Below, piece by piece: positions 138-10,975 of a stretch of 23,502 bases of DNA (position 1 is its first letter; the number at the start of each line of letters is the position of its first letter). The notes below the pieces were generated by a model. That model was not told the origin of the DNA and searched no databases. It worked only from the letters and a program-made list of their open reading frames with translations. The stretch is from a virus, in UHGV virus genome UHGV-0080740; one strand, written 5' to 3'. Both the position numbers and the translations under genes were made by a program.

Positions 138-425
138 TTATTTCATCCGTTCACTGGCGAGATGATAAACGTTGCTGCGTTCACGTTTACCTACTGCGAC
201 GACCGCAATAATTAACATATCATCAATAACCTGATAAACCAGACGAAAACCTGATGCGCGAAGTTTGATTTTATAGCAGTCCTTTAATCCACGTAGTTTT
301 GCAGAAGCTATATGAGGATTTTCACTGCATTTTTTCAGTTTTTTTGCGAACTGCTGCTGAATGGTCTTGTCCAGTCTGAGCCATTCTTTCAGTGCATCAT
401 CCCGGAATTTTACTGTATAAGTCAT
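138..425 (-). CDS. RelE/ParE-family (StbE-like) type II toxin, 95 aa
   Basis: Family-typical C-terminus FRLVYQV...IIAVVAVGKRERSNVY; 4-nt overlap with upstream antitoxin ORF. Confidence 0.8.
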   Translation of the reverse strand: MTYTVKFRDDALKEWLRLDKTIQQQFAKKLKKCSENPHIASAKLRGLKDCYKIKLRASGFRLVYQVIDDMLIIAVVAVGKRERSNVYHLASERMK

Positions 426-673
426 AAATAACTGTCCAGGTCCACATCATGCAGAGGCTGACTGCTGCGTTCAGTAACCAGTTTTACCAGCTCCTGGTCA
501 TCCAAGGCATCAAGCATTCTTTCATAGAGCTCAGCAGGGACACAGTAGAATGCTGGCTGATTCCGGTTAAGAATGGCAACAGGATACCCCTCTCCGGCAC
601 TGACAGTTGCCATCGGATTTTTTTTCAGCTCACTGACGCTTGCACTGGTGTCAGACAAAATGATACTGGGCAT
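422..673 (-). CDS. Phd/YefM (StbD-like) antitoxin, 83 aa
   Basis: Small acidic protein with Phd/YefM-like N-terminus, directly upstream of and overlapping the RelE-like gene; SD GAGGTG 5 nt before ATG. Confidence 0.75.
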   Translation of the reverse strand: MPSIILSDTSASVSELKKNPMATVSAGEGYPVAILNRNQPAFYCVPAELYERMLDALDDQELVKLVTERSSQPLHDVDLDSYL

Positions 674-1171: not shown

Positions 1172-4100
1172 GTGGTGTTTTTTATTCCTGATGTTTTTTT
1201 GTTGTGGTTTCAGAACGGTGAGATTCGGGGCCCGCGCGTTAGCGTGGGAGGTGCTCCTGTTCTTGGTACTGATGGCACTCCAGTTATGCGCGATGCCCTA
1301 AAACTGGCAGATGAAGCCACTATCACGGCGCGGATGAACGCGATCCCGCACTCAAATTACCGTGCAGTCGTGTTTACCAAAGAACAATACGCCCGCATTC
1401 CGCTACGTGATGACACCGTAGATGAGCATGCACAGGATATGCTTTATGACTTCGTTGCCGCCGGGCGCGTAGCCAGCGCAATGGACTCCGACTCCCACCG
1501 CAAAGAGGCCGCGCGTCGCCGGGTATTGTCGGAGTATTCAGATACCGGTACCGAAAAAGCAGAGAAGTATCCGTACTTTGAGGATATGGGCTTCGATAGT
1601 GTGATCGCTGACGAAGGTCACAACTACCGCAATAGCTATAAAAATGGTCGCGAAGCGTCACAACTGGCCTATCTGCCCACCAGCGCGGTGGCGCAATCGG
1701 CGCGGGATATGGCAATTAAAAACGCGTACCTGATGAAAAAGAATGGTGGGCGCGGACCGGTTCTCCTGACTGCAACGCCAGTCGTTAACACCCCGATCGA
1801 TGCATACAACATGCTTTCTCATGTGCTGCCGAAGGAATACTGGCAGAAGATGGGGATCTACGGTCCTGATGACTTCGTTAAATTCTTCGGCAAGACCAGG
1901 CTGGAAACGGTACAGAAAATCAGCGGTGAAGTTGAAGAAAAAATGGCGCTGGTGGGCTTTGAAAACCTTGATGCGCTGCGCGGCATATTCCATCGCTGGA
2001 CAACGCTTAAAACGGCGGAAGACGTTAAGGATACCGTGGAGATCCCGGAACTGGACGAACACCAGCAGGATGCACCACTTACTGAAGAACAACTGGCGGC
2101 GTATGAAGAATTACGCCAGCAGGCGGAAGCGGTGGCCAAAGCCAACAATGGCGTAACGACCTCGGTCGATGAAGACGGAGTGATTGAGCACGAGAAAGCC
2201 CGTCCGATCTTCTCAATAATCAGGGATATGGACCGCGTATGTACTGACATGGACCTGTACTATCGCCGGATCACCTATCGTTTCCTGCCGGAGTACGCCG
2301 ATGCGGTGCAGCAGCTGGCGGACAGTTTGCCTAAACAAGCCACCAGCGAAGACGACGACAGTGATGATTCAATCACGCAGCAATCGCAATACTCCCTGAT
2401 AGATAAGGGCGAGTTTATTCAGTTGCAGGTTCCGGAAGCGTTCGAGCAGGAAGTGAATAAGCGCCTGGCCAGGTTTGGCATTGACGAACAGACCGTAACT
2501 CACCCCGTTACGCCCAAATACGCGAAGCTGATTGCCACGCTGAAGGAGTTTTTCCCGGAAGGGAAGCAAATCATCTTCACCGACGAAAAAACGCAGCACC
2601 AGAAGCTCAAGCGCATTATCTGCAATGTTCTTAACCTTGAACCTTCAATGGTAGGGATCCTGAATGCTCAGACGGTTGCCGAGGCAGGTAAAACCGGTAA
2701 GAAACTGAAAGCGGTTAAACCGCCGAAAGAGTTACCGGATGAACCAACAGATGCACAGATAGCGAAATACAACGAGCAAATGGCTCTGTATGACGCCTAT
2801 ATCGCGCAGCAAAATGAAATGTCGTTGGGCGGTCTGGAAAAGATTGCAGCCGACTTCCAGGAGGGCCGGACTCCGATCATTATCTGCAACAAAAAGGCAG
2901 AGGTGGGTATCAACCTGCATCGAGGAACGACTGACATCCATCATCTGACGTTGCCATGGACACCAGCCAGTGTCGCACAGCGTAACGGTCGCGGTGCCCG
3001 AGTTGGCTCCAACCGTGCAAGCGTTCGCGTTCATTACTACTGCGGCAAGGGTTCTTTCGATGAATACCGACTGAAGACGCTGAAGCGTAAAGCAGGCTGG
3101 ATCTCCGATATCCTCCGTTCAGATAAGTCAGAAATGGAGAACGCCGACGCCAACGATATGATCGAAATGCAGATGTATACCGCTAAGGATGATGGCGAAC
3201 GTCTGGCAATGATGCAGGTTCAAATGGATAAGGCGAAAGCCGCGCAACGCGCCCGCCAGAAAGAACAGGCCGCTATCGACCTTCAGAACTACATCAAGGC
3301 GCAACATGCAGCTGGCGAGGATGTTGCGGCTCTTACCGCTGAATTAGAGCGAAGTAAAGCGGAACTTGAAAAGACCACCGCCGAGGTAGCTAAATTCAAA
3401 CAGGCGGTAATGGCCAAAGCAGCTGATAATGCAGGCTGGAAGGCCCGCTGGGGTAGCGTCCATCACACAGACCGTACGTTGTTAGCACATTATCGCGCGT
3501 CGTTGAAAAGCGCCATTCAGCGCAAGGCTAATATCACTCAAGCCATCTCCCGCTATGAGAAATTATTGAACCGTACTCAGAAGGCCGCGACGGATATCAA
3601 ACGCCTGCGCCCGCTGGTGGAGGATGCAATAAATAAAGGCATTCTGGATGTTGATCCTGATCTGGTTAACCATGCGAATGAGTTCCTTGTTATCGGCGAT
3701 CGCTCATGGCGTGTAGGCCAATACTACGATTGTGCCGGTGATATCGTTCGCATTAAGTCGCTGGACTTCGACAGCCAGCGCGCAGACGTGGAGATCATCT
3801 TTACCTTCAAAGGCACCAAATCGGGTAACTGGGATGTGAAGACGCTGGATAAACAGGTGGATGTAACTCCCGATGAAGATGCTGTTATGCAGAAAATCAG
3901 TGGTGGCGTCTCCATCGCCGGGATTAACGACATCATTTCCTGTGACGATTTCTACCGTTTCCAGCAGCGCGGCATGATCAAAATCACTGACTCATACGGC
4001 GTTCAGACTACAGAGTCAGGCTATAGCATTGATTTTGTTGGTACCTATACGGACCCACTGAAGCATGCGGTTTACCCGGATCGCCGTGACGGCGCGCTGA

Positions 4101-5224
4101 AGTCGTCAATTGCAAAATGGGTGCTTGGTATGATGTCGGAAGGGAATAACCGCCAGGTCCGTTTGGCAGAAGTATTCCTGACTGAACTGTTTGGCTCCAA
4201 TTATGGCGAAGTAATCGCGTCATACGGAGATACGCTATCCCCTGAAGCAATTCAGGAGAAAATAGCGGATGCGATCGCCAGAATGCCGGAGAAAACAAGC
4301 CAGGGGGCTACTCGTAACGGGGATTCTGAACTTGAGGTCACCAATGCCATTTTCGGTACCCATGAGTTCCGGGCGTCAGATTATGAGATCACCACAGCAC
4401 AGTTTGGCACCATTGGCATTTACAGCAATAAAGACGAGATCAAGCAGGCAATGGACGCTGCAAGCGCGCGTATTGCAGCAGAACGGAAAGCCAATCTGAA
4501 TCATGCAGTCGCCGCGCTGACTCAATCGTGGGTAACAGCAATCAGGGAGGCCGCCACCACAGGGAAAATCACACCGGCAATTGCGGATGTCGTAAACGAC
4601 GGCTCTAAATTTATGGATGCCTATCAAATGGATGCGGTGCAGTTGCCATCAGCCTATGGGCAACTCAGCTATCGCATGACCTACAACCTGGTATCAATGT
4701 TTTCCGACCTTGCCATCCTTGGGCTGGTGGACCTTAACGAGGTTACGCCGGAATTGCTTAGCATGCGCAAGAATCATGTTGAGATATTGCAGAGAATTAA
4801 CACGGTTCTTGCCGGGCGCACCGATGAAGAGAAACAGGCCGACGCTGATCGGATAAACCTGGCCCTAGGCAACATCACGGAGGAAGAAATTGCCGCCAGA
4901 AACGAGAAACAAGAAGAGTTATCATCAATACAGGGTGATGCCACCAGCATAGCTCAGTCTCTTGGTCTGAATTATCGCGTATCCACCGCCGACCTGAAGA
5001 TGATGTACGCACCAAAATTCGCAGCTGGTGAGGTATTTGGGCTTCAGGAGGCGTCCGGCATGAAAGGCGTTCTTTTCCGTGCTAAAGACGCAATCAAGGA
5101 AAAATTCGGCGCTCGCTGGCTGCCAGCGAAGGCGAAGAACAGCGATTTCCCGGGCAACTGGTGGATTATCGAGACAAAACACAACGTGGCGGACGTTCTG
5201 GCCGTCATCCAACAATACGCATAA
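1172..5224 (+). CDS. darB: SF2 helicase-domain protein, DarB-like, apparently 5'-truncated (1350 aa from GTG)
   Basis: Helicase motifs II (IADEGH), III (TATPVVN) and VI (QRNGRGARVG) present, no Walker A upstream; in-frame TGA at 1145-1147; position upstream of ulx/lxc-like genes fits P1 darB (about 2255 aa, recalled). Confidence 0.6.
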   Translation: MVFFIPDVFLLWFQNGEIRGPRVSVGGAPVLGTDGTPVMRDALKLADEATITARMNAIPHSNYRAVVFTKEQYARIPLRDDTVDEHAQDMLYDFVAAGRVASAMDSDSHRKEAARRRVLSEYSDTGTEKAEKYPYFEDMGFDSVIADEGHNYRNSYKNGREASQLAYLPTSAVAQSARDMAIKNAYLMKKNGGRGPVLLTATPVVNTPIDAYNMLSHVLPKEYWQKMGIYGPDDFVKFFGKTRLETVQKISGEVEEKMALVGFENLDALRGIFHRWTTLKTAEDVKDTVEIPELDEHQQDAPLTEEQLAAYEELRQQAEAVAKANNGVTTSVDEDGVIEHEKARPIFSIIRDMDRVCTDMDLYYRRITYRFLPEYADAVQQLADSLPKQATSEDDDSDDSITQQSQYSLIDKGEFIQLQVPEAFEQEVNKRLARFGIDEQTVTHPVTPKYAKLIATLKEFFPEGKQIIFTDEKTQHQKLKRIICNVLNLEPSMVGILNAQTVAEAGKTGKKLKAVKPPKELPDEPTDAQIAKYNEQMALYDAYIAQQNEMSLGGLEKIAADFQEGRTPIIICNKKAEVGINLHRGTTDIHHLTLPWTPASVAQRNGRGARVGSNRASVRVHYYCGKGSFDEYRLKTLKRKAGWISDILRSDKSEMENADANDMIEMQMYTAKDDGERLAMMQVQMDKAKAAQRARQKEQAAIDLQNYIKAQHAAGEDVAALTAELERSKAELEKTTAEVAKFKQAVMAKAADNAGWKARWGSVHHTDRTLLAHYRASLKSAIQRKANITQAISRYEKLLNRTQKAATDIKRLRPLVEDAINKGILDVDPDLVNHANEFLVIGDRSWRVGQYYDCAGDIVRIKSLDFDSQRADVEIIFTFKGTKSGNWDVKTLDKQVDVTPDEDAVMQKISGGVSIAGINDIISCDDFYRFQQRGMIKITDSYGVQTTESGYSIDFVGTYTDPLKHAVYPDRRDGALKSSIAKWVLGMMSEGNNRQVRLAEVFLTELFGSNYGEVIASYGDTLSPEAIQEKIADAIARMPEKTSQGATRNGDSELEVTNAIFGTHEFRASDYEITTAQFGTIGIYSNKDEIKQAMDAASARIAAERKANLNHAVAALTQSWVTAIREAATTGKITPAIADVVNDGSKFMDAYQMDAVQLPSAYGQLSYRMTYNLVSMFSDLAILGLVDLNEVTPELLSMRKNHVEILQRINTVLAGRTDEEKQADADRINLALGNITEEEIAARNEKQEELSSIQGDATSIAQSLGLNYRVSTADLKMMYAPKFAAGEVFGLQEASGMKGVLFRAKDAIKEKFGARWLPAKAKNSDFPGNWWIIETKHNVADVLAVIQQYA

Positions 5225-5230
5225 CAGGAG

Positions 5231-5248
5231 CGCCCGGTTCGCCGGGCG
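5231..5248 (+). other. stable RNA hairpin (7-bp GC stem, UUCG tetraloop) between SD and start codon of next gene
   Basis: cgcccgg-ttcg-ccgggcg; AGGAG at 5226-5230 and ATG at 5258 are 27 nt apart, about 9 nt if the hairpin folds. Confidence 0.5.
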
Positions 5249-5257
5249 TCGCATAAT

Positions 5258-5698
5258 ATGGCCACACTATCTGATACAATAAAACCGAATAAAACATATC
5301 TTGAGGCGGTACTCCGTACAGCGTTGTTAGGAAAGACAGAAGACGAATACGTTGATTTCTTCCTGTCAGGGCTACGCGGGCGATTACTGAAAAATCCCCG
5401 CCTGTACCGCAGCTATGGCCCATACTGGCCGGAAATTAAAAAATTATTACTGGAGCGCGGTTATGGTAATTTCGGTCGTCTCGTTGACCGTGACGTTCGC
5501 AAATTTTACCGTTATGACCGCCCGGCGCTAACACTCATAGCCGCGACGCTCTACAGCCAGGAGCGTTTTGATAATGGTCAGATATACTCAGCCTGGCATT
5601 TACTGCCAGTCCCTGAAGAAGTTGACGACCAGGACTATGAGTTTGAGTCTTACGATTTGGAAGTTGAAGCCTTGGCACAGGCTGGAGAGAAAACTTGA
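5258..5698 (+). CDS. hypothetical protein, 146 aa (ulx position, upstream of lxc)
   Basis: Clean ORF between darB-like and lxc-like genes; stop overlaps next start; name is positional only. Confidence 0.55.
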   Translation: MATLSDTIKPNKTYLEAVLRTALLGKTEDEYVDFFLSGLRGRLLKNPRLYRSYGPYWPEIKKLLLERGYGNFGRLVDRDVRKFYRYDRPALTLIAATLYSQERFDNGQIYSAWHLLPVPEEVDDQDYEFESYDLEVEALAQAGEKT

Positions 5699-5943
5699 AA
5701 AAGCGATACTACACAGTAAAGCATGGGACGCTACGAGCATTACAAGAGTTTGCTGACAAGCATAACGTTGAGGTGCGCAGGGAAGGGGGAAGTAAAGCTC
5801 TGCGCATGTACCGTCCGGACGGGAAATGGCGGACGGTCGTCGATTTCAAAACAAACAGCGTTCCCCAGGGCGTCCGCGACCGGGCATTCGAAGAATGGGA
5901 GCAGATCATCATAGATAATGCTCTGCTACTAAATGCTGACTGA
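5695..5943 (+). CDS. lxc: Lxc/Bof-like C1 co-repressor, 82 codons with TTG start
   Basis: 82-codon ORF starting at TTG with SD GGAGA 5 nt upstream; matches my recollection that P1 bof/lxc is an 82-codon TTG-initiated ORF. Confidence 0.55.
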   Translation: MKKRYYTVKHGTLRALQEFADKHNVEVRREGGSKALRMYRPDGKWRTVVDFKTNSVPQGVRDRAFEEWEQIIIDNALLLNAD

Positions 5944-6202
5944 GTTTAATATTACAATATTATCTGGGAGATAAATGCATCTTATTTCCCAGATGATAAC
6001 TGATGTTTTACATATTCACATGGTGTACAATTATAATACTGCCTAAATAGGCACACAAAGTACGATATGCTACTAAAACCACAACTTTTTGATACTTGTT
6101 TGAGGGGGCGGGTTTGCTTTAGTAATTTAATAGCAAAAGCCATTCGTGTATCAAGTAATAACTTACTGAAGGAGGTGTTTTCTAATAAGAGTTTTTTCTT
6201 TA

Positions 6203-6715
6203 TTAAACTCTCACTATGTATAGATAATCAGTTAAGTCTCTTAGTTTCCAATGTTTAGATACATCTGAAAGAAATATGCTGCGTACTTTCCCTGAGAAAG
6301 TAGGCATACCAGACTTAAGAAAAGCTCTAAGGTTGTCAACATCACTAAAAATTGAAAGTAATGAAAAAGTTAAAGCATCCTTAAAATCAGGATGTATATG
6401 ATTCTGGTCACTTATATTATCGATCATCCTGATTAATAAATCAGGATAAGCAAAAGACTTTTTTAGCAAATGTGGGCATTTATCCAGAAGTTGCTTCCCT
6501 TGGTGATTGTGACAAGATAAATAGTTTCTTACAGCACTATCATTAAGTTCGAATTCGATATATTTATCTGAATAGGTTTGTAAGAATTCGCGTTCAGAAT
6601 GTTTAAGCAACAGCACATCACCATAATTTAATATTAAGAAATCCTTAAGAAATTGAAAATTTATCGGTTTCTTTATAAGGATGAAGTAACAGACTCCTGA
6701 CATAGCTACCACCAT
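6203..6715 (-). CDS. hypothetical protein, 166-170 aa, AT-rich cargo gene (alternative start at 6703)
   Basis: Only long ORF on this strand in the AT-rich island; GGTGG precedes ATG at 6703; no recognisable domain; contains R-x5-H (AVRNYLSCH). Confidence 0.5.
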   Translation of the reverse strand: MVVAMSGVCYFILIKKPINFQFLKDFLILNYGDVLLLKHSEREFLQTYSDKYIEFELNDSAVRNYLSCHNHQGKQLLDKCPHLLKKSFAYPDLLIRMIDNISDQNHIHPDFKDALTFSLLSIFSDVDNLRAFLKSGMPTFSGKVRSIFLSDVSKHWKLRDLTDYLYIVRV

Positions 6716-6855
6716 TCTAAAGAGGCTTTGAACAAGAATAGAGATACAGCAGCACTGAAATCAAGAAGTTGTGCAAAAAATAAAAATATTGATTTGTGTC
6801 ATAGTTGCTGCTTTTTATTATTTAATTTTTATCAATTTCACTACAGATAAATAAA

Positions 6856-6887
6856 TTGACATAGTGTGTAACCCCTGTAAATATAAA
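6856..6887 (+). promoter_or_regulatory. candidate sigma70 promoter for the EAL-domain gene
   Basis: TTGACA at 6856-6861, about 16-17 bp spacer, A/T-rich -10-like TAAATA/TATAAA, about 50 bp upstream of ATG 6938. Confidence 0.35.
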
Positions 6888-6937
6888 GGGCACTTTATCT
6901 GCTAAAGCCAACCAATTTAAAAATAGAGGGTGGGAGC

Positions 6938-7627
6938 ATGGAAGTTATCTACATAGTAGAACCAATCATTTCCACAAGCACTAACAAGTTGATAGCAGTG
7001 GAAGTGTTGAGCAGATTTTATTCCAACGAGGGGGCTATTCTTTCTACTCAGAAAGTATTAGGTATGTTTACAAGCAAGATGAAGATTAACTTGCTAAAAT
7101 CTCAACTTAACACAATAATCAAATATAAGTATTTTTTTGAATGCCATAATATATTATGCTCTATCAATGTAGATTATGATACCTGTTTATATATATATGG
7201 CAATAAACAAATTCAAGAACTACTAATAAACAATAAATTTATAGCGATTGAGATATCAGAAAACTATCCTGATTTAAGCGATGAGGATTACATCATATCC
7301 TTTCTACTGACTTTGACAGATAATGTTTGGCTTGATGATTTTGGAAGTGGTAACGCCACCATGAAAGCATTAATTAAAAATAAATATCATGCAATAAAAC
7401 TTGATAAGTCATTTTTTCAAGAGCATATGATTAAGCCTCATTTTGATGTCATTATTAGCAATTTAAAAAAGTTATGTCCGAATATCATCGCTGAAGGCGT
7501 CGAAAACATTGATTGTCATAAGTTATCAAAAGGGATAGGGCTATGGGGCACTCAGGGATATTTTTTCCCATCAATTCCGCTGACGGAGATTGAGTCCATA
7601 GATAGTAAGTGGCTATCAGATTTATGA
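6938..7627 (+). CDS. stand-alone EAL-domain protein, YdiV-like, 229 aa
   Basis: EAL signatures in order: EVLSR (EAL variant), EISE, DDFGSGNATMKAL, KLDKSF, EGVE, QGYFF; no sensor or GGDEF domain; strong SD GGGTGGGAG. Confidence 0.8.
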   Translation: MEVIYIVEPIISTSTNKLIAVEVLSRFYSNEGAILSTQKVLGMFTSKMKINLLKSQLNTIIKYKYFFECHNILCSINVDYDTCLYIYGNKQIQELLINNKFIAIEISENYPDLSDEDYIISFLLTLTDNVWLDDFGSGNATMKALIKNKYHAIKLDKSFFQEHMIKPHFDVIISNLKKLCPNIIAEGVENIDCHKLSKGIGLWGTQGYFFPSIPLTEIESIDSKWLSDL

Positions 7628-7680
7628 GATGCAGAGAGTTAGGATATTGATATGAACATCTAAGCACCTCATTACTGTGC

Positions 7681-8133
7681 TTAAAAGATGTTATCCTTAC
7701 CTGTTAATTTACCTTGAGGAACTTTAGTGAGCTCCATCCGATAAAATGCTTTTATCATATTTACAAATGGCTCATATGGTGAATATTCGTTGTCTTGTTT
7801 AGTAACGGTGTCTGTCATTGTCCTGATGTAGTCTGCGCTTACCACGTTGTTGTTTGCTTCAATTAGTACCGGCCTGCCGTTCATGAAGGGATCACGCAAC
7901 CTTACACGCTGGCCAACTCGACCGGTAATAAAGCTGTTTTCCTCTTCCACCAGCACGATAAAACCCTTTTCCTCTTTTTCTCGCAATTCGCGCAGCAGCT
8001 GGAGTTCCATATCGCGGCGGCGTTCAGGGTAGCTGGTCCGCTCAGCCATTATCAGCTCATTGTTGATCCATGCAGCAGTCATTGACGCCGGTTTGCCGAC
8101 GCTCATTGAAACAACGCATATTTTCTTATCCAT
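7681..8133 (-). CDS. hypothetical protein, about 150 aa (P1 mat position, between ref and the variable locus)
   Basis: ORF with SD AGGGG before ATG at 8133 (track ORF begins at GTG 8160); name is positional only. Confidence 0.5.
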   Translation of the reverse strand: MDKKICVVSMSVGKPASMTAAWINNELIMAERTSYPERRRDMELQLLRELREKEEKGFIVLVEEENSFITGRVGQRVRLRDPFMNGRPVLIEANNNVVSADYIRTMTDTVTKQDNEYSPYEPFVNMIKAFYRMELTKVPQGKLTGKDNIF

Positions 8134-8321
8134 AGCGCCCCTACAAAAAAGAAAAGCCACCAGCGGCGGCTTAGCAATACAACTGAAGGTAGCGCCCGGT
8201 ACTCAGACTGTGCCGTCCATGGAATATTTGAAAGGGGATCCATCCGTACCGGGCATGTGATGATTCTGACTGAAGTCACTTGTCAGTTGTCAATCATTTA
8301 TCATTAAAAATAATATATTTA

Positions 8322-8882
8322 TTAGTGCATGATGTTTGCCATCTCATAGGCGTCAGCCAGTAACTCCATCTCTGACTTGTTCAGCAGGGTGAATTCTTTC
8401 TTGCCTCCAACCACACCATCGGCATGAACAGGGACCAGCCAGGGGTATTTTGCTCTTACTTCAGCCGGAGCTGCATGCTGGTGGTGCCATCTACAAAGAG
8501 GCAATTGCTTTTTATGACAACCCGGCGCGGTACGACCGGCGATATGGTGCAGAGACATCTCATTAGATATTACTCCATGCATATAGCAGGCAATGCAGGG
8601 GAGAGTGCCAAGAGCATTGGCGATGCGCCGTTCCTCCGCCGTTGGTGTTCTCCCCTTCAAGCCACGAGATTTTATTTTTACCGCGCTTTTCCGCGTTTTG
8701 CTGGCTGGTGGGCGCTCTTTCTGTTTAGCGATACGGCGGTCGAGAGTATCCCGCATTTTCTGATATTGAGATTCTCGCCAGACCGGATCAGCCAACTTCT
8801 CCCGTTGCCGAGCGATCGCTCGTTCTCTGGCTGCCTTCTGCCACTTGCGGCACTGTTCAATTTTTTGTTCGATTGTTTTCAT
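8322..8882 (-). CDS. ref: Ref, HNH-family recombination enhancement endonuclease, 186 aa
   Basis: MKTIEQKIEQCRKWQ... with Cys/His cluster CIACYMHG...HHIAG...CHKK...CRWHH, recognised as P1 Ref; C1 operator upstream. Confidence 0.9.
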   Translation of the reverse strand: MKTIEQKIEQCRKWQKAARERAIARQREKLADPVWRESQYQKMRDTLDRRIAKQKERPPASKTRKSAVKIKSRGLKGRTPTAEERRIANALGTLPCIACYMHGVISNEMSLHHIAGRTAPGCHKKQLPLCRWHHQHAAPAEVRAKYPWLVPVHADGVVGGKKEFTLLNKSEMELLADAYEMANIMH

Positions 8883-8886
8883 ATGG

Positions 8887-8913
8887 CAAAAAAAAGGCGG
8901 CCTAATGGCCGCC
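8887..8913 (-). terminator. rho-independent terminator/attenuator just upstream of ref ATG
   Basis: On - strand GGCGGCC-ATTA-GGCCGCC followed by T8, ending 5 nt before ref start, downstream of ref operator/promoter. Confidence 0.55.
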
Positions 8914-8980
8914 AATGATGTCAAGGAGTGAAGTAATGGCAACGTCTTCGTAGTTGACAAAAACTGCGGCTCAATTATAG

Positions 8981-8997
8981 CGATCTATTAGAGCAAT
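8981..8997 (-). promoter_or_regulatory. C1 operator (Op2-like) overlapping ref promoter
   Basis: - strand ATTGCTCTAATAGATCG matches C1 operator consensus ATTGCTCTAATAAATTT; TATAAT follows on - strand. Confidence 0.75.
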
Positions 8998-9102
8998 GAT
9001 AGATATTTTGTTTATCGCTAATCACATTTTTTCACTTCAGTACCTGTGTGCTATACTCCTTCTTGATTGATTGGATGCGGAATACAAACCCGCTCTTTTG
9101 TG

Positions 9103-9129
9103 CAGCCTGGCTCCTTGCCAGGCTTTTTT
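9103..9129 (+). terminator. hairpin with T8 run (+ strand terminator; on - strand a 5' structure preceding the CCAATCAATCA motif)
   Basis: gcctggc-tcctt-gccaggc followed by tttttttt. Confidence 0.45.
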
Positions 9130-9441
9130 TTATTTCATCATGGAAGTTGTTAACGCTTTGGACCTTGCTGAACTGATTGAGAGGGCTTTGTCAACGTGCC
9201 CCAAAAATTCGCCAAACGCAGACATCACTTTAGCAAAACCGCGCCGTGCTTCTTCCTCGGTGGCATTCATCACGAAATGTTCAGCACCACGCATACTTTT
9301 GACAGGGAACGCAACGGATATTGAATCAATATCAGGCATTCTATCGCTCAGCTTTACAGTGACAATGACGGCTGGCGACTGAATATTAGTGCTTACAGAC
9401 AGCACTACATATTTTCCGTCGATGTTGAAATCCTTTCTCAT
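9130..9441 (-). CDS. hypothetical protein, 103 aa (cra position, downstream of cre)
   Basis: SD GGTGA 3 nt before ATG; C1-operator-like site upstream; preferred over the overlapping + strand ORF 9071-9382, which lacks such signals. Confidence 0.45.
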   Translation of the reverse strand: MRKDFNIDGKYVVLSVSTNIQSPAVIVTVKLSDRMPDIDSISVAFPVKSMRGAEHFVMNATEEEARRGFAKVMSAFGEFLGHVDKALSISSARSKALTTSMMK

Positions 9442-9457
9442 ATGTCACCATAAATAT

Positions 9458-9474
9458 CAAAGAATTAGAGCAAT
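9458..9474 (-). promoter_or_regulatory. C1-operator-like site upstream of the 103-aa gene
   Basis: - strand ATTGCTCTAATTCTTTG, about 12/17 match to operator consensus. Confidence 0.5.
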
Positions 9475-9491
9475 CATTTACGCGTTAATGG

Positions 9492-10523
9492 CTAATCGCC
9501 ATCTTCCAGAAGGCGCACCATTGCCCCTGTTTCACTATCCAGGTTACGGATATAGTTCATGACAATATTTACGTTGGTCCAGCCACCAGCTTGCATGATC
9601 TCCGGTATTGAAACTCCGGCACGGGCCATATCTCGCGCGGCTCCGACACGGGCACTGTGTCCAGACCAGGCCAGGTACCTCTGGCCAGAGTCATCCTTAG
9701 CCCCGTAAATCAATCGGTGAGTTGCTTCAAAAATCCCTTCCAGGGCGCGAGTTGATAGCTGGCTGGTGGGTGATGGCGAGGCAACACCATTTTTTCTGAC
9801 CCGGCAAAACAAGTAGTTATTCGGATCATCAGCCACACCAGAGACAGAAATCCATCGTTCGACCAGTTTAGTTACCCCCAGGCTAAGTGCCTTCTCTACA
9901 CCCGCGGTACTAACCAGAGTTTTCGTTCTGCCAATATGGATTAGCATTCTCCCACCGTCTGTACGTGAGATATCTTTAACCCTGATCCTGGCAATTTCGG
10001 CTATACGTAACAGGGTGTTATAAGCGATCCCCAGAAATGCCAGATTACGTATATCCTGGCAGCGATCGCTATTTTCCATGAGTGAACGAACCTGGTCGAA
10101 ATCAGTGCGTTCGAACGCCAATGCCTGTTTTGCACGTTCACCGGCATCAACGTTTTCTTTTCGAATCCGCCGCATGACCAGTGAAACAGCATTGCTGTCA
10201 CTTGGTCGTGGCAGCCCGGACCGACGATGAAGCATGTTTAGCTGGCCCAAATGTTGCTGGATAGTTTTTACTGCCAGACCGCGCGCCTGAAGATATAGAA
10301 GATAATCGCGAACATCTTCAGGTTCTGCGGGAAACCACTTCCGGTTATTCAACTTGCACCATGCCGCCCACGACCGGCAAACGGACAGAAGCATTTTCCA
10401 GGTATGCTCAGAAAACGCCTGGCGATCCCTGAACATGTCCATCAGGTTCTTGCGAACCTCATCACTCGTTGCATCGACCGGTAATGCAGGCAAATTTTGG
10501 TGTACGGTCAGTAAATTGGACAT
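9492..10523 (-). CDS. cre: Cre tyrosine recombinase, 343 aa
   Basis: MSNLLTVHQNLPALPVDATSDEVRKNLMDMFRDRQAFSEHTWK... recognised as P1 Cre with a few substitutions; loxP 419 bp upstream. Confidence 0.97.
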   Translation of the reverse strand: MSNLLTVHQNLPALPVDATSDEVRKNLMDMFRDRQAFSEHTWKMLLSVCRSWAAWCKLNNRKWFPAEPEDVRDYLLYLQARGLAVKTIQQHLGQLNMLHRRSGLPRPSDSNAVSLVMRRIRKENVDAGERAKQALAFERTDFDQVRSLMENSDRCQDIRNLAFLGIAYNTLLRIAEIARIRVKDISRTDGGRMLIHIGRTKTLVSTAGVEKALSLGVTKLVERWISVSGVADDPNNYLFCRVRKNGVASPSPTSQLSTRALEGIFEATHRLIYGAKDDSGQRYLAWSGHSARVGAARDMARAGVSIPEIMQAGGWTNVNIVMNYIRNLDSETGAMVRLLEDGD

Positions 10524-10530
10524 TTAACAC

Positions 10531-10752
10531 TCAGACAATAGTTTTAAGTAAAGTGTACAGGATTGGCTCTGCCTTTACCTGTTTATGGTTCTCGTCATAG
10601 AAACGCCAGCGACCGCGCGTGCGTTCTATTTTCTCTTCACCGCGCGATAATGACAGTTGGCAACTATCACGATCAAACCCTTTTGCCCGCCAGTAACCAC
10701 GGTTTTTCTCAAGCTCAAGATGAGTGGACACTTTAGCAGCTGAATATCCCAT
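10531..10752 (-). CDS. candidate small basic protein, 73 aa, between loxP and cre
   Basis: SD GAGGTG 4 nt before ATG; stop 8 nt before cre ATG; CCAATCAATCA motif directly upstream of SD. Confidence 0.35.
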   Translation of the reverse strand: MGYSAAKVSTHLELEKNRGYWRAKGFDRDSCQLSLSRGEEKIERTRGRWRFYDENHKQVKAEPILYTLLKTIV

Positions 10753-10782
10753 TTTTCACCTCTGATTGATTGGTGGTGCTAA

Positions 10783-10846
10783 GTGCGCTACGCGAAATCT
10801 GGAGCACTAACACTGCCAACATTTCGCAGATTTTACGTAGCGCAAC
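10783..10846. promoter_or_regulatory. imperfect 20-bp inverted repeat in the cre upstream region
   Basis: gtgcgctacgcgaaatctgg ... cagattttacgtagcgcaac (17/20 complementary) around a 24-nt spacer. Confidence 0.4.
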
Positions 10847-10849
10847 CTT

Positions 10850-10922
10850 GATCAAATGATCAAGTGATCACTATTTGACCTGATAAGGTATTGAACTGTA
10901 TTGATTTACAGGTAAATTGATC
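10850..10922. promoter_or_regulatory. cluster of four Dam sites (TGATCA hexamers) in the cre regulatory region
   Basis: GATC at 10850, 10858, 10866 and 10919; Dam-regulated cre promoters are described for P1. Confidence 0.5.
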
Positions 10923-10941
10923 ATGTTCAATAACCCTTAAG

Positions 10942-10975
10942 ATAACTTCGTATAATGTATGCTATACGAAGTTAT
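10942..10975 (+). other. loxP: loxP recombination site (34 bp)
   Basis: Exact ATAACTTCGTATA-ATGTATGC-TATACGAAGTTAT. Confidence 0.99.

Follow-up and report, generated by a model that had tools for sequence, protein, structure and literature searches.

The stretch of DNA analyzed here (the window, 23,502 nucleotides of UHGV virus genome UHGV-0080740) belongs to a P1-like phage-plasmid in which an A/T-rich island, at positions 5944–7680, holds two divergent genes: an intact gene for a stand-alone EAL-domain protein and the remains of a gene for an AraC-family regulator. We read this pair as a mobile, host-modulating accessory cassette made of a likely cyclic di-GMP (c-di-GMP) phosphodiesterase and its cognate AraC-type activator, the latter being dead in this copy, and we give this reading a probability of roughly 60%. 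The island is an uncharacterized and widespread cargo, with an EAL phosphodiesterase and a regulator of the AraC family as representatives of familiar protein families, and not a new kind of system.

In the scheme that we favor, the cassette would have displaced the EcoPI type III restriction-modification (R-M) genes in one P1-like lineage by recombination, one end point falling at the stop codon of lxc and the other within the 3′ end of mat, and its 32%-GC DNA would probably be silenced by H-NS. The YdeO/Rns-type activator would most likely switch the cassette on upon some signal, and the short EAL protein would most likely hydrolyze c-di-GMP to pGpG. Once made, the enzyme would lower the c-di-GMP content of the lysogen, the expected outcome being greater motility and a matrix poorer in curli and cellulose, a phenotype proposed from what is established for PdeH and other EAL enzymes. 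Loss of the activator would leave the EAL gene orphaned, with at most a basal expression from its own weak promoter. Such a cassette would serve the lysogenic conversion of host behavior rather than defense. The features that carry the argument are the following.

6938–7627, plus strand: intact stand-alone EAL-domain protein of 229 residues, predicted c-di-GMP phosphodiesterase (Pfam, catalytic residues, and AlphaFold2 (AF2) model)
5982–6703, minus strand: AraC/XylS-family (YdeO/Rns-like) regulator gene, a frameshifted pseudogene (three-frame translation, alignment, and the Prokaryotic Genome Annotation Pipeline, PGAP)
6215–6216: site of the 1-bp deletion, reading ctcact^atg here and ctcactCatg in the intact alleles (alignment with three other island versions)
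6704–6937: divergent intergenic control region (alignment of the P1, IncX1, and IncFII versions, and sequence)

The EAL protein and its broken regulatory partner

The EAL protein matches Pfam family PF00563 over residues 8–210 with 63.7 bits for a cut-off of 31.3, and its best curated NCBIfam match is PdeH/YhjH (PRK11596; 3.8e-26, 91.9 bits), under the 190-bit cut-off of that model. The protein retains the full set of 11 catalytic and metal-binding residues (E22, R26, N77, E105, E108, D133, D134, K154, E186, E189, and Q206), which line up with the EVLxR, N, ELTE, DDFG, KID, EGVE, and QG motifs of YahA, while PdeH and SfaY keep 10 of these positions, STM1697 keeps 7, and YdiV keeps 4. Moreover, E22, E105, E108, D133, D134, K154, E186, E189, and Q206 are invariant in 19 relatives with identities going down to 22%. 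Loop 6 reads DDFGSGNATM in place of the canonical DFG(T/A)GYSS, so that the DFG and the second Gly are kept and the YSS is replaced, a variant common to SfaY and to the whole clade.

Sequence comparison with the PDB ranks STM1697 first (1.6e-28) and YdiV second (4e-19), with the active YahA/PdeL behind them (1e-8). The AF2 model, with a predicted local distance difference test score (pLDDT) of 91.7, has a predicted TIM-barrel-like fold and gives 103 PDB matches at E ≤ 1e-3, the 50 listed being all EAL or EAL-like domains. It superposes on YdiV with a template modeling (TM) score of 0.88 and a root-mean-square deviation (rmsd) of 1.9 Å, on STM1697 with TM-scores of 0.84/0.91, and on active EAL domains with a TM-score of about 0.75 and an rmsd of about 3.5 Å. 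An exhaustive HMMER search against 1.84 billion cluster representatives retrieved only 12 of them at E ≤ 1e-30, a number that rises to 89 at E ≤ 1e-10, and, judged by their sequences, these relatives form a small clade of short stand-alone EAL proteins. Most of the nearest representatives of the 50%-identity clusters (E < 1e-25) score 10–11 of the 11 catalytic positions. Furthermore, some proteins with a complete catalytic set are 42–49% identical to STM1697, which suggests that STM1697 arose by degeneration from within an enzymatic clade, the window protein being a member of that clade.

The initial annotation had called the EAL protein YdiV-like. This description holds for the nearest neighbor in sequence and fold, but not for the function, since the catalytic set lost by YdiV is complete here. 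A YdiV-type nonenzymatic role would therefore not be the default reading, and the combination of what appears, from sequence and model, to be a YdiV/STM1697-like scaffold with a complete active site would be one interesting twist of the island.

The divergent gene had been taken to encode a protein of 166–170 residues without a recognizable domain; it proves to be the 5′ part of an AraC/XylS-family gene broken by a 1-bp deletion. The frameshift leaves two pieces, an open reading frame (ORF) at 6203–6715 on the minus strand that covers the N-terminal domain, and an ORF at 5982–6143 that covers the second helix-turn-helix (HTH). When the minus strand is translated in three frames, the 170-residue ORF is seen to terminate in ...HWKLRDLTDYLYIVRV followed by a stop codon, and the other frame runs on with ...SESLIKKKLLLENTSFSKLLLDTRMAFAIKLLKQ...CGFSSISYFVCLFRQYYNCTPCEY..., a typical double HTH of the AraC family. 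In the protein as annotated, the stop falls after residue 166, and the reading frame to the DNA-binding domain is interrupted in the window. Putting the missing base back yields an ORF of 240 residues that is collinear with the intact alleles.

Residues 160–233 of these intact 240-residue alleles match the Pfam families HTH_18 (50.7 bits, cut-off 33.6) and HTH_AraC (38.5 bits, cut-off 26.6), and residues 1–233 align on positions 1–232 of the NCBIfam model of YdeO (2.4e-45, 155 bits). As this score stays under the 348-bit cut-off, the regulator is a paralog and not YdeO itself; its next NCBIfam matches are GadX, then HilD/HilC. The intact regulator also matches the phage family phrog_1450, and its AF2 model (pLDDT 75) has full-length structural matches in CsvR, Rns, and ToxT at 22% identity.

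Intact alleles are found in NCCP 15734, in the O111:H2 plasmid p08_3342-2, and in phage vB_EcoM-Ro157c2YLVW. On the other hand, 85 complete Escherichia coli genomes contain the exact 81-mer carrying the deletion, and none contains this haplotype in repaired form. Among P1-type plasmids sampled at even spacing for tblastn, 12 of the 18 copies of the regulator are split into two pieces; the 1-bp deletion has destroyed it in about two thirds of the P1-type copies. PGAP labels the gene as frameshifted in pTB211 and pMRE162. A sequencing error as the cause of the frameshift was considered and is ruled out by the nonhomopolymer site, by the recurrence of the 81-mer in these 85 genomes, and by the PGAP flag in two independent assemblies.

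Between the two genes, the regulator-proximal half of the 6704–6937 region is conserved across the P1, IncX1, and IncFII versions, whereas the EAL-proximal half is not. By eye, a candidate promoter of the EAL gene can be proposed, with a perfect TTGACA at 6856–6861, a 17-bp spacer, a TG at 6876–6877, and a weak −10 element AAATAT at 6879–6884, and a strong Shine-Dalgarno sequence, GGGTGGGAG, stands ahead of the EAL ATG. The genes had been credited with promoter signals of their own, but these do not rise above chance: a sigma-70-like scan of the island counts 11 sites for 10.3 ± 3.4 in shuffled sequences, and none in 6704–6937 under the rule of the scan, so the TTGACA-17-AAATAT element is to be regarded as a putative promoter. 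A search of Rfam with 5700–8000 at E ≤ 1 matched no family, c-di-GMP riboswitches included.

Distribution and conservation of the gene pair

Of 5,426 complete E. coli genomes, 147 (about 2.7%) carry the 1.8-kb island, at 150 places on plasmids and 6 on chromosomes, and it is also present in 152 plasmids of PLSDB and in four phage records, one of which is the P1vir stock described below. At the level of plasmids, tblastn detects the EAL family on 260 and that of the regulator on 415. Most P1-type copies have an intact EAL ORF with at least 99% identity. Furthermore, an intact divergent pair is carried by an IncX1 plasmid beside hns, hha, and topB, with 83% identity for the regulator and 66% for the EAL protein, and another one by IncFII contigs beside a relBE-type toxin-antitoxin system and repA, the identity of the EAL protein being 66–67% over the IncX1 and IncFII versions. 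The idea of a horizontally acquired two-gene module is therefore borne out, with the same divergent layout on three replicon types (P1-type, IncX1, and IncFII), at the res-mod position in the P1 type, and with both genes intact on IncX1 and IncFII. As to whether this is a well-characterized pair, the families are familiar (EAL and AraC), but neither gene has been functionally characterized, and our literature search found no paper in which an EAL gene is connected with P1-like elements.

Between the P1 and IncFII versions, the ratio of nonsynonymous to synonymous divergence (dN/dS) is 0.13 for the EAL gene and 0.08–0.09 for the regulator, with dS near saturation, and the dN/dS of the regulator is 0.08–0.13 across the P1, IncFII, and O111 versions. 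These low values in both genes indicate that purifying selection has kept the pair as a unit. Comparison of 5982–7627 with the O111:H2 plasmid p08_3342-2 gives a dS of about 0.44 for the regulator and of about 0.045 for the EAL gene, a contrast which points to a recombination break between the two genes and to a mosaic island.

The pairing was also looked for throughout the wider families, where it fails: distant homologs of either gene are not paired in this way. An EAL gene of 50% identity comes after a pap-like fimbrial operon, and the class of 43% identity is flanked by unrelated AraC genes of the Rob/SoxS type. An example of the latter is seen in the IncF plasmid pRHB04-C05_2 (3009–5721), where the 43%-identical EAL gene has on both sides AraC-family genes with an N-terminal HTH, one of them with a GyrI-like domain. 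As for the regulator, a homolog of 58% identity occurs on IncFII plasmids, where its neighbor is a fimbrial subunit gene of the K88 type, and another of 49% identity occurs on E. coli contigs, within a few kb of a motA-like gene, both without an EAL gene. These settings hint at a general link of the regulator family with loci for surface structures or motility.

Several copies of the island are damaged. In phage vB_EcoM-Ro157c2YLVW (NC_050153, about 4058–4750), the EAL gene is frameshifted near codon 175 with loss of E186, E189, and Q206, and is annotated as a hypothetical protein of 199 residues, and the regulator is intact. This decay is reciprocal to that of the window, the EAL gene being broken there and the regulator here. 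Insertion sequences (IS) IS903B, IS5, IS3, and IS1 interrupt the island in several plasmids (e.g., NZ_AP027845, NZ_CP081699, NZ_CP123964, and NZ_JBYPZB010000002), and phage SJ1 retains the EAL gene only, beside IS1 and a mer transposon. In a laboratory P1vir "del res del mod" (OP279344, 3083–4708), the island replaces res-mod, with an intact EAL gene and a regulator of 233 residues owing to a 21-bp in-frame deletion. This record is a sequenced P1vir stock from work on pAgo, in which the island is not commented on. Its presence in a working P1vir stock means that the island is compatible with lytic growth and that some P1vir stocks do not have the reference genotype.

What the cassette may do

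Among homologs of the EAL gene, one has been studied experimentally, the IncX1 gene xeal of pOLA52 and pIS15_43 (Madsen et al. 2016), called a "putative degenerate EAL domain" gene (PMC5023117). Crystal-violet biofilm and swimming were unaffected, and Congo-red binding was lowered only on over-expression (PMC5023117). The xeal product of pOLA52 corresponds in our alignments to the 135 C-terminal residues of the protein, with 98% identity to residues 92–226 of the full-length EAL protein of IncX1 and 64% to the protein of the window; it is devoid of E22, R26, and N77 and of the AraC partner, and its gene adjoins IS1 and the mrk cassette. The xeal gene as studied is thus a remnant, and the published negative results concern a truncated protein. 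The lowered Congo-red binding on over-expression (PMC5023117) goes in the direction expected of c-di-GMP depletion and is counted in favor of a host-modulating phosphodiesterase cassette.

Several points weigh against this reading. The activity is a predicted one, and the best matches in both sequence and structure are the noncatalytic YdiV and STM1697. Loop 6 departs from the canonical form, with DDFGSGNAT instead of DFG(T/A)GYSS, and the PdeH score is well short of its cut-off (91.9 bits for 190). No promoter was statistically prominent in the scan of the island, and the EAL gene may be silent here, its activator being dead. The putative control of the EAL gene by the regulator is proposed from their conserved divergent synteny, and the one homolog study, made with a truncated protein, saw biofilm and motility unaffected at native expression (PMC5023117). 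Finally, each gene decays independently (the regulator here, the EAL gene in Ro157c2YLVW), and IS insertions occur in other copies, which suggests that selection on the cassette is weak or conditional.

The alternative that survives best, although we consider it doubtful, is that the island is an inert and decaying cargo in this plasmid, the EAL gene being silent without its activator and hitch-hiking on a successful plasmid lineage. The identity of the pseudogene allele in the 85 genomes is consistent with clonal spread over repeated selection, and nearby lesions (a 192-bp deletion in mat and a 5′-truncated darB), the IS5, IS3, IS1, and IS903B insertions within the island of other plasmids, the frameshifted EAL gene of phage Ro157c2YLVW, and a promoter scan not above chance go in the same direction. 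This view is countered by the EAL ORF itself, intact and nearly invariant in most P1-type copies, by its long-term dN/dS of about 0.13, and by the perfect −35 hexamer, the extended −10, and the strong Shine-Dalgarno sequence that precede it, while close copies differ too little to show relaxed selection either way.

Unlikely, in our opinion, is a role similar to that of YdiV (RflP) or STM1697, in which the EAL protein would bind FlhD, block FlhD4C2, and turn host flagella off, with or without residual enzyme activity. The ranking of the PDB matches (STM1697 and YdiV before YahA) and the better fit of the AF2 model to these two proteins than to active EAL domains speak for it, and the GSGNAT loop resembles GVGNAT in STM1697 and GAGNST in YdiV. 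Eleven FlhD-interface residues of STM1697 were examined: F160 and K167 are identical in the EAL protein (F159 and K166), and V147, L172, and L173 are replaced conservatively by I146, V171, and I172. However, K175 and H176 become Ser and Asn, and V115 and L116 become Ser and Asp. With regard to YdiV, a gap of 4 residues covers the FlhD contacts F181 and R183, A184 becomes Val, and F155 becomes Ile. F159 corresponds to both F168 of YdiV and F160 of STM1697, but this residue is universal in EAL domains and hence not diagnostic of FlhD binding. Above all, the degeneracy that defines YdiV and STM1697 is absent, with 11 of 11 catalytic residues present for 4 and 7 in these proteins, and, without catalysis, one would hardly expect such residues to persist in relatives of as little as 22% identity. 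The status of STM1697 as an apparent degenerate offshoot, with catalytically complete relatives of 42–49% identity, and the unchanged swimming upon over-expression of the truncated xeal (PMC5023117) also argue against this role.

It is still less probable, but conceivable, that the EAL protein is a living intermediate that both hydrolyzes c-di-GMP and binds FlhD, which would give the element a two-pronged hold on the motile-sessile switch of the host, with the AraC-type partner as environmental sensor. If so, a P1-like prophage-plasmid could alter the exposure of flagella or matrix to other phages or to the animal host, and the recurrent loss of the regulator would fix the cassette in one expression state.

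An anti-phage defense or counter-defense module, for example one removing a cyclic-dinucleotide signal, is very improbable, since the initial annotation's proposal of an undescribed and possibly defensive two-gene system has in its favor only the position at the res-mod site near the anti-restriction genes darB/ulx and the fact that EAL enzymes act on a cyclic dinucleotide, whereas the EAL protein, the intact regulator, and the 170-residue fragment match no family of PADLOC-DB 2.0 at E ≤ 0.01, both proteins come from ordinary signaling and regulatory families, the matching PHROG families are of unknown function, the same pair sits in plasmid backbones by hns/hha/topB or by replication and toxin-antitoxin genes and not in defense islands, and more distant EAL relatives come after fimbrial operons.

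In E. coli of animals and humans, P1-like phage-plasmids are common vehicles of resistance genes. If the EAL protein is active, P1-like elements would change the c-di-GMP level of their host, and hence biofilm matrix and motility, traits that bear on colonization, phage adsorption, and plasmid spread. The protein would also be a useful comparator for the origin of the YdiV/STM1697 regulators from enzymes. With regard to annotation, what stands as a "hypothetical protein" next to the EAL gene is a regulator of the AraC family in broken form, and P1 has at its res-mod site an exchange point for unrelated cargo and not a dedicated defense locus.

The locus and comparison with known systems

The window has the gene order cre (9492–10523, minus strand), c8, ref, mat, then lxc, ulx, and a darB remnant, and its segments 1256–5939 and 7854–10958 are 97.5–97.9% identical to reference P1 (NC_005856). 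In this reference, EcoPI res and mod lie between mat (2716–3468) and lxc (9750–9998), and the window is devoid of them. Alignment to NC_005856 confirms that the island, located between lxc and mat, occupies the res-mod position; on the other hand, an IS1 had been placed in the canonical interval, where the reference record has an IS5 inside mod and no IS1. The homology to P1 ends at window position 5939 (P1 9754), 4 bases short of the end of lxc, and, as judged from island-bearing relatives with a complete mat, it restarts at P1 3336, inside mat, at about window position 7816. The exchanged segment thus includes the diverged last ~44 codons of mat. The features of the locus are the following.

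5940–7815 (approximate): A/T-rich replacement segment, which stands in for P1 3337–9753 (res-mod) and includes the diverged 3′ end of mat
5695–5943, plus strand: flanking gene lxc (bof), annotated lxc/bof in homologous loci; its stop codon marks the left boundary of the island
7681–8133, minus strand: flanking gene mat (maturation control), with its 3′ 135 bp in the exchanged segment and a 192-bp in-frame deletion at 7853/7854
5958–5998: hairpin with a 17-bp stem, likely bidirectional terminator between the convergent lxc and regulator genes, overlapping the stop codon of the regulator (terminator scan)

The claim of a block far richer in A/T than its flanks is fully supported. The GC content of 5944–7680 is 0.321, for a mean of 0.476 (standard deviation 0.029, minimum 0.406) in stretches of the same size outside the island, well past local fluctuation, and the 1,737-bp stretch of lowest GC in the whole window, 5927–7663, practically coincides with it. 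As for the limits proposed at 5944 and 7680, the block stands but the exchanged A/T-rich segment reaches about 135 bp further, into the 3′ end of mat, where the GC content of 7681–7853 is 0.364. A repeat search around the island for transposon-like borders gave short chance pairs only and no meaningful direct or inverted repeats. The 5958–5998 hairpin has a folding energy of −23.8 kcal/mol (z = −6.2), with none of 200 shuffled sequences folding equally well, and it is almost unchanged across three aligned island variants.

The mat deletion at 7853/7854 removes 64 codons relative to P1, pTB211, P1vir, and all other loci compared (blastn and translations), and the annotation of pMRE162 has the same shortened mat of 453 nucleotides. 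At the left end of the window, positions 1–1255 do not derive from P1 and are 100% identical to several E. coli plasmids, e.g., pMRE162; a RelE/Phd-YefM toxin-antitoxin pair can be placed there at about 138–673 (minus strand) by offset from the annotation of pMRE162. This segment stands in for the 5′ ~2.8 kb of darB, of which only the part coding for the C-terminal region of DarB is left (ORF 1172–5224), the darB remnant of pMRE162 being 1,110 bp shorter than that of the window. The element is probably a degraded derivative of P1.

The EcoPI res-mod genes of reference P1 share with the island the site between mat and lxc, but they make up a type III R-M system of about 6.4 kb (the IS5 of the reference record included), replaced by about 1.9 kb of DNA unrelated to it in sequence and function. 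The regulator resembles the horizontally acquired AraC-family proteins of E. coli, YdeO, AppY, and GadX, in its size, its A/T richness, its location on mobile DNA, and its full-length alignment with YdeO; it differs in missing the equivalog cut-off of YdeO (PRK09940) and in being a pseudogene in the window. Like the virulence regulators Rns, CsvR, and ToxT, which have a ligand-binding N-terminal domain, it is a small two-domain activator on A/T-rich mobile DNA. In this case, however, the model is only moderately confident, TM-scores are low because of a differing domain orientation, and no fimbrial or toxin target lies nearby.

Regarding the EAL protein, PdeH (YhjH), a stand-alone EAL phosphodiesterase of E. 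coli, is a known active enzyme. It has a similar size, a single domain, conserved catalytic residues, and the WLDDFG motif in common with the window protein, although the two share 24–25% identity and the equivalog cut-off is far off. Unlike that of PdeH, the EAL gene is borne by plasmids and phages, is A/T-rich, has an AraC-type gene as its partner, and is not known to belong to the flagellar regulon. The nearest solved structures are those of STM1697 and YdiV/RflP (PDB 5HXG, 3TLQ, and 4ES4), proteins of equal length with a similar loop 6 (GxGNxT), which neither bind nor cleave c-di-GMP (PMC3510510, PMC5622320). The difference lies in the active site, where STM1697 has lost 4 and YdiV 7 of the 11 catalytic positions and the EAL protein none.

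SfaY, encoded at the end of the S-fimbrial operon and described as a stand-alone phosphodiesterase (PMC6385356), is likewise a short stand-alone EAL protein on horizontally acquired DNA, with the same WLDDFGSGNA loop and 10 of the 11 catalytic residues. It shares 23% identity with the EAL protein and is tied to a fimbrial operon, with SfaX, without a divergent AraC-type gene. Finally, xeal of the IncX1 plasmids is homologous to the EAL gene of the window and, like it, a plasmid cargo.

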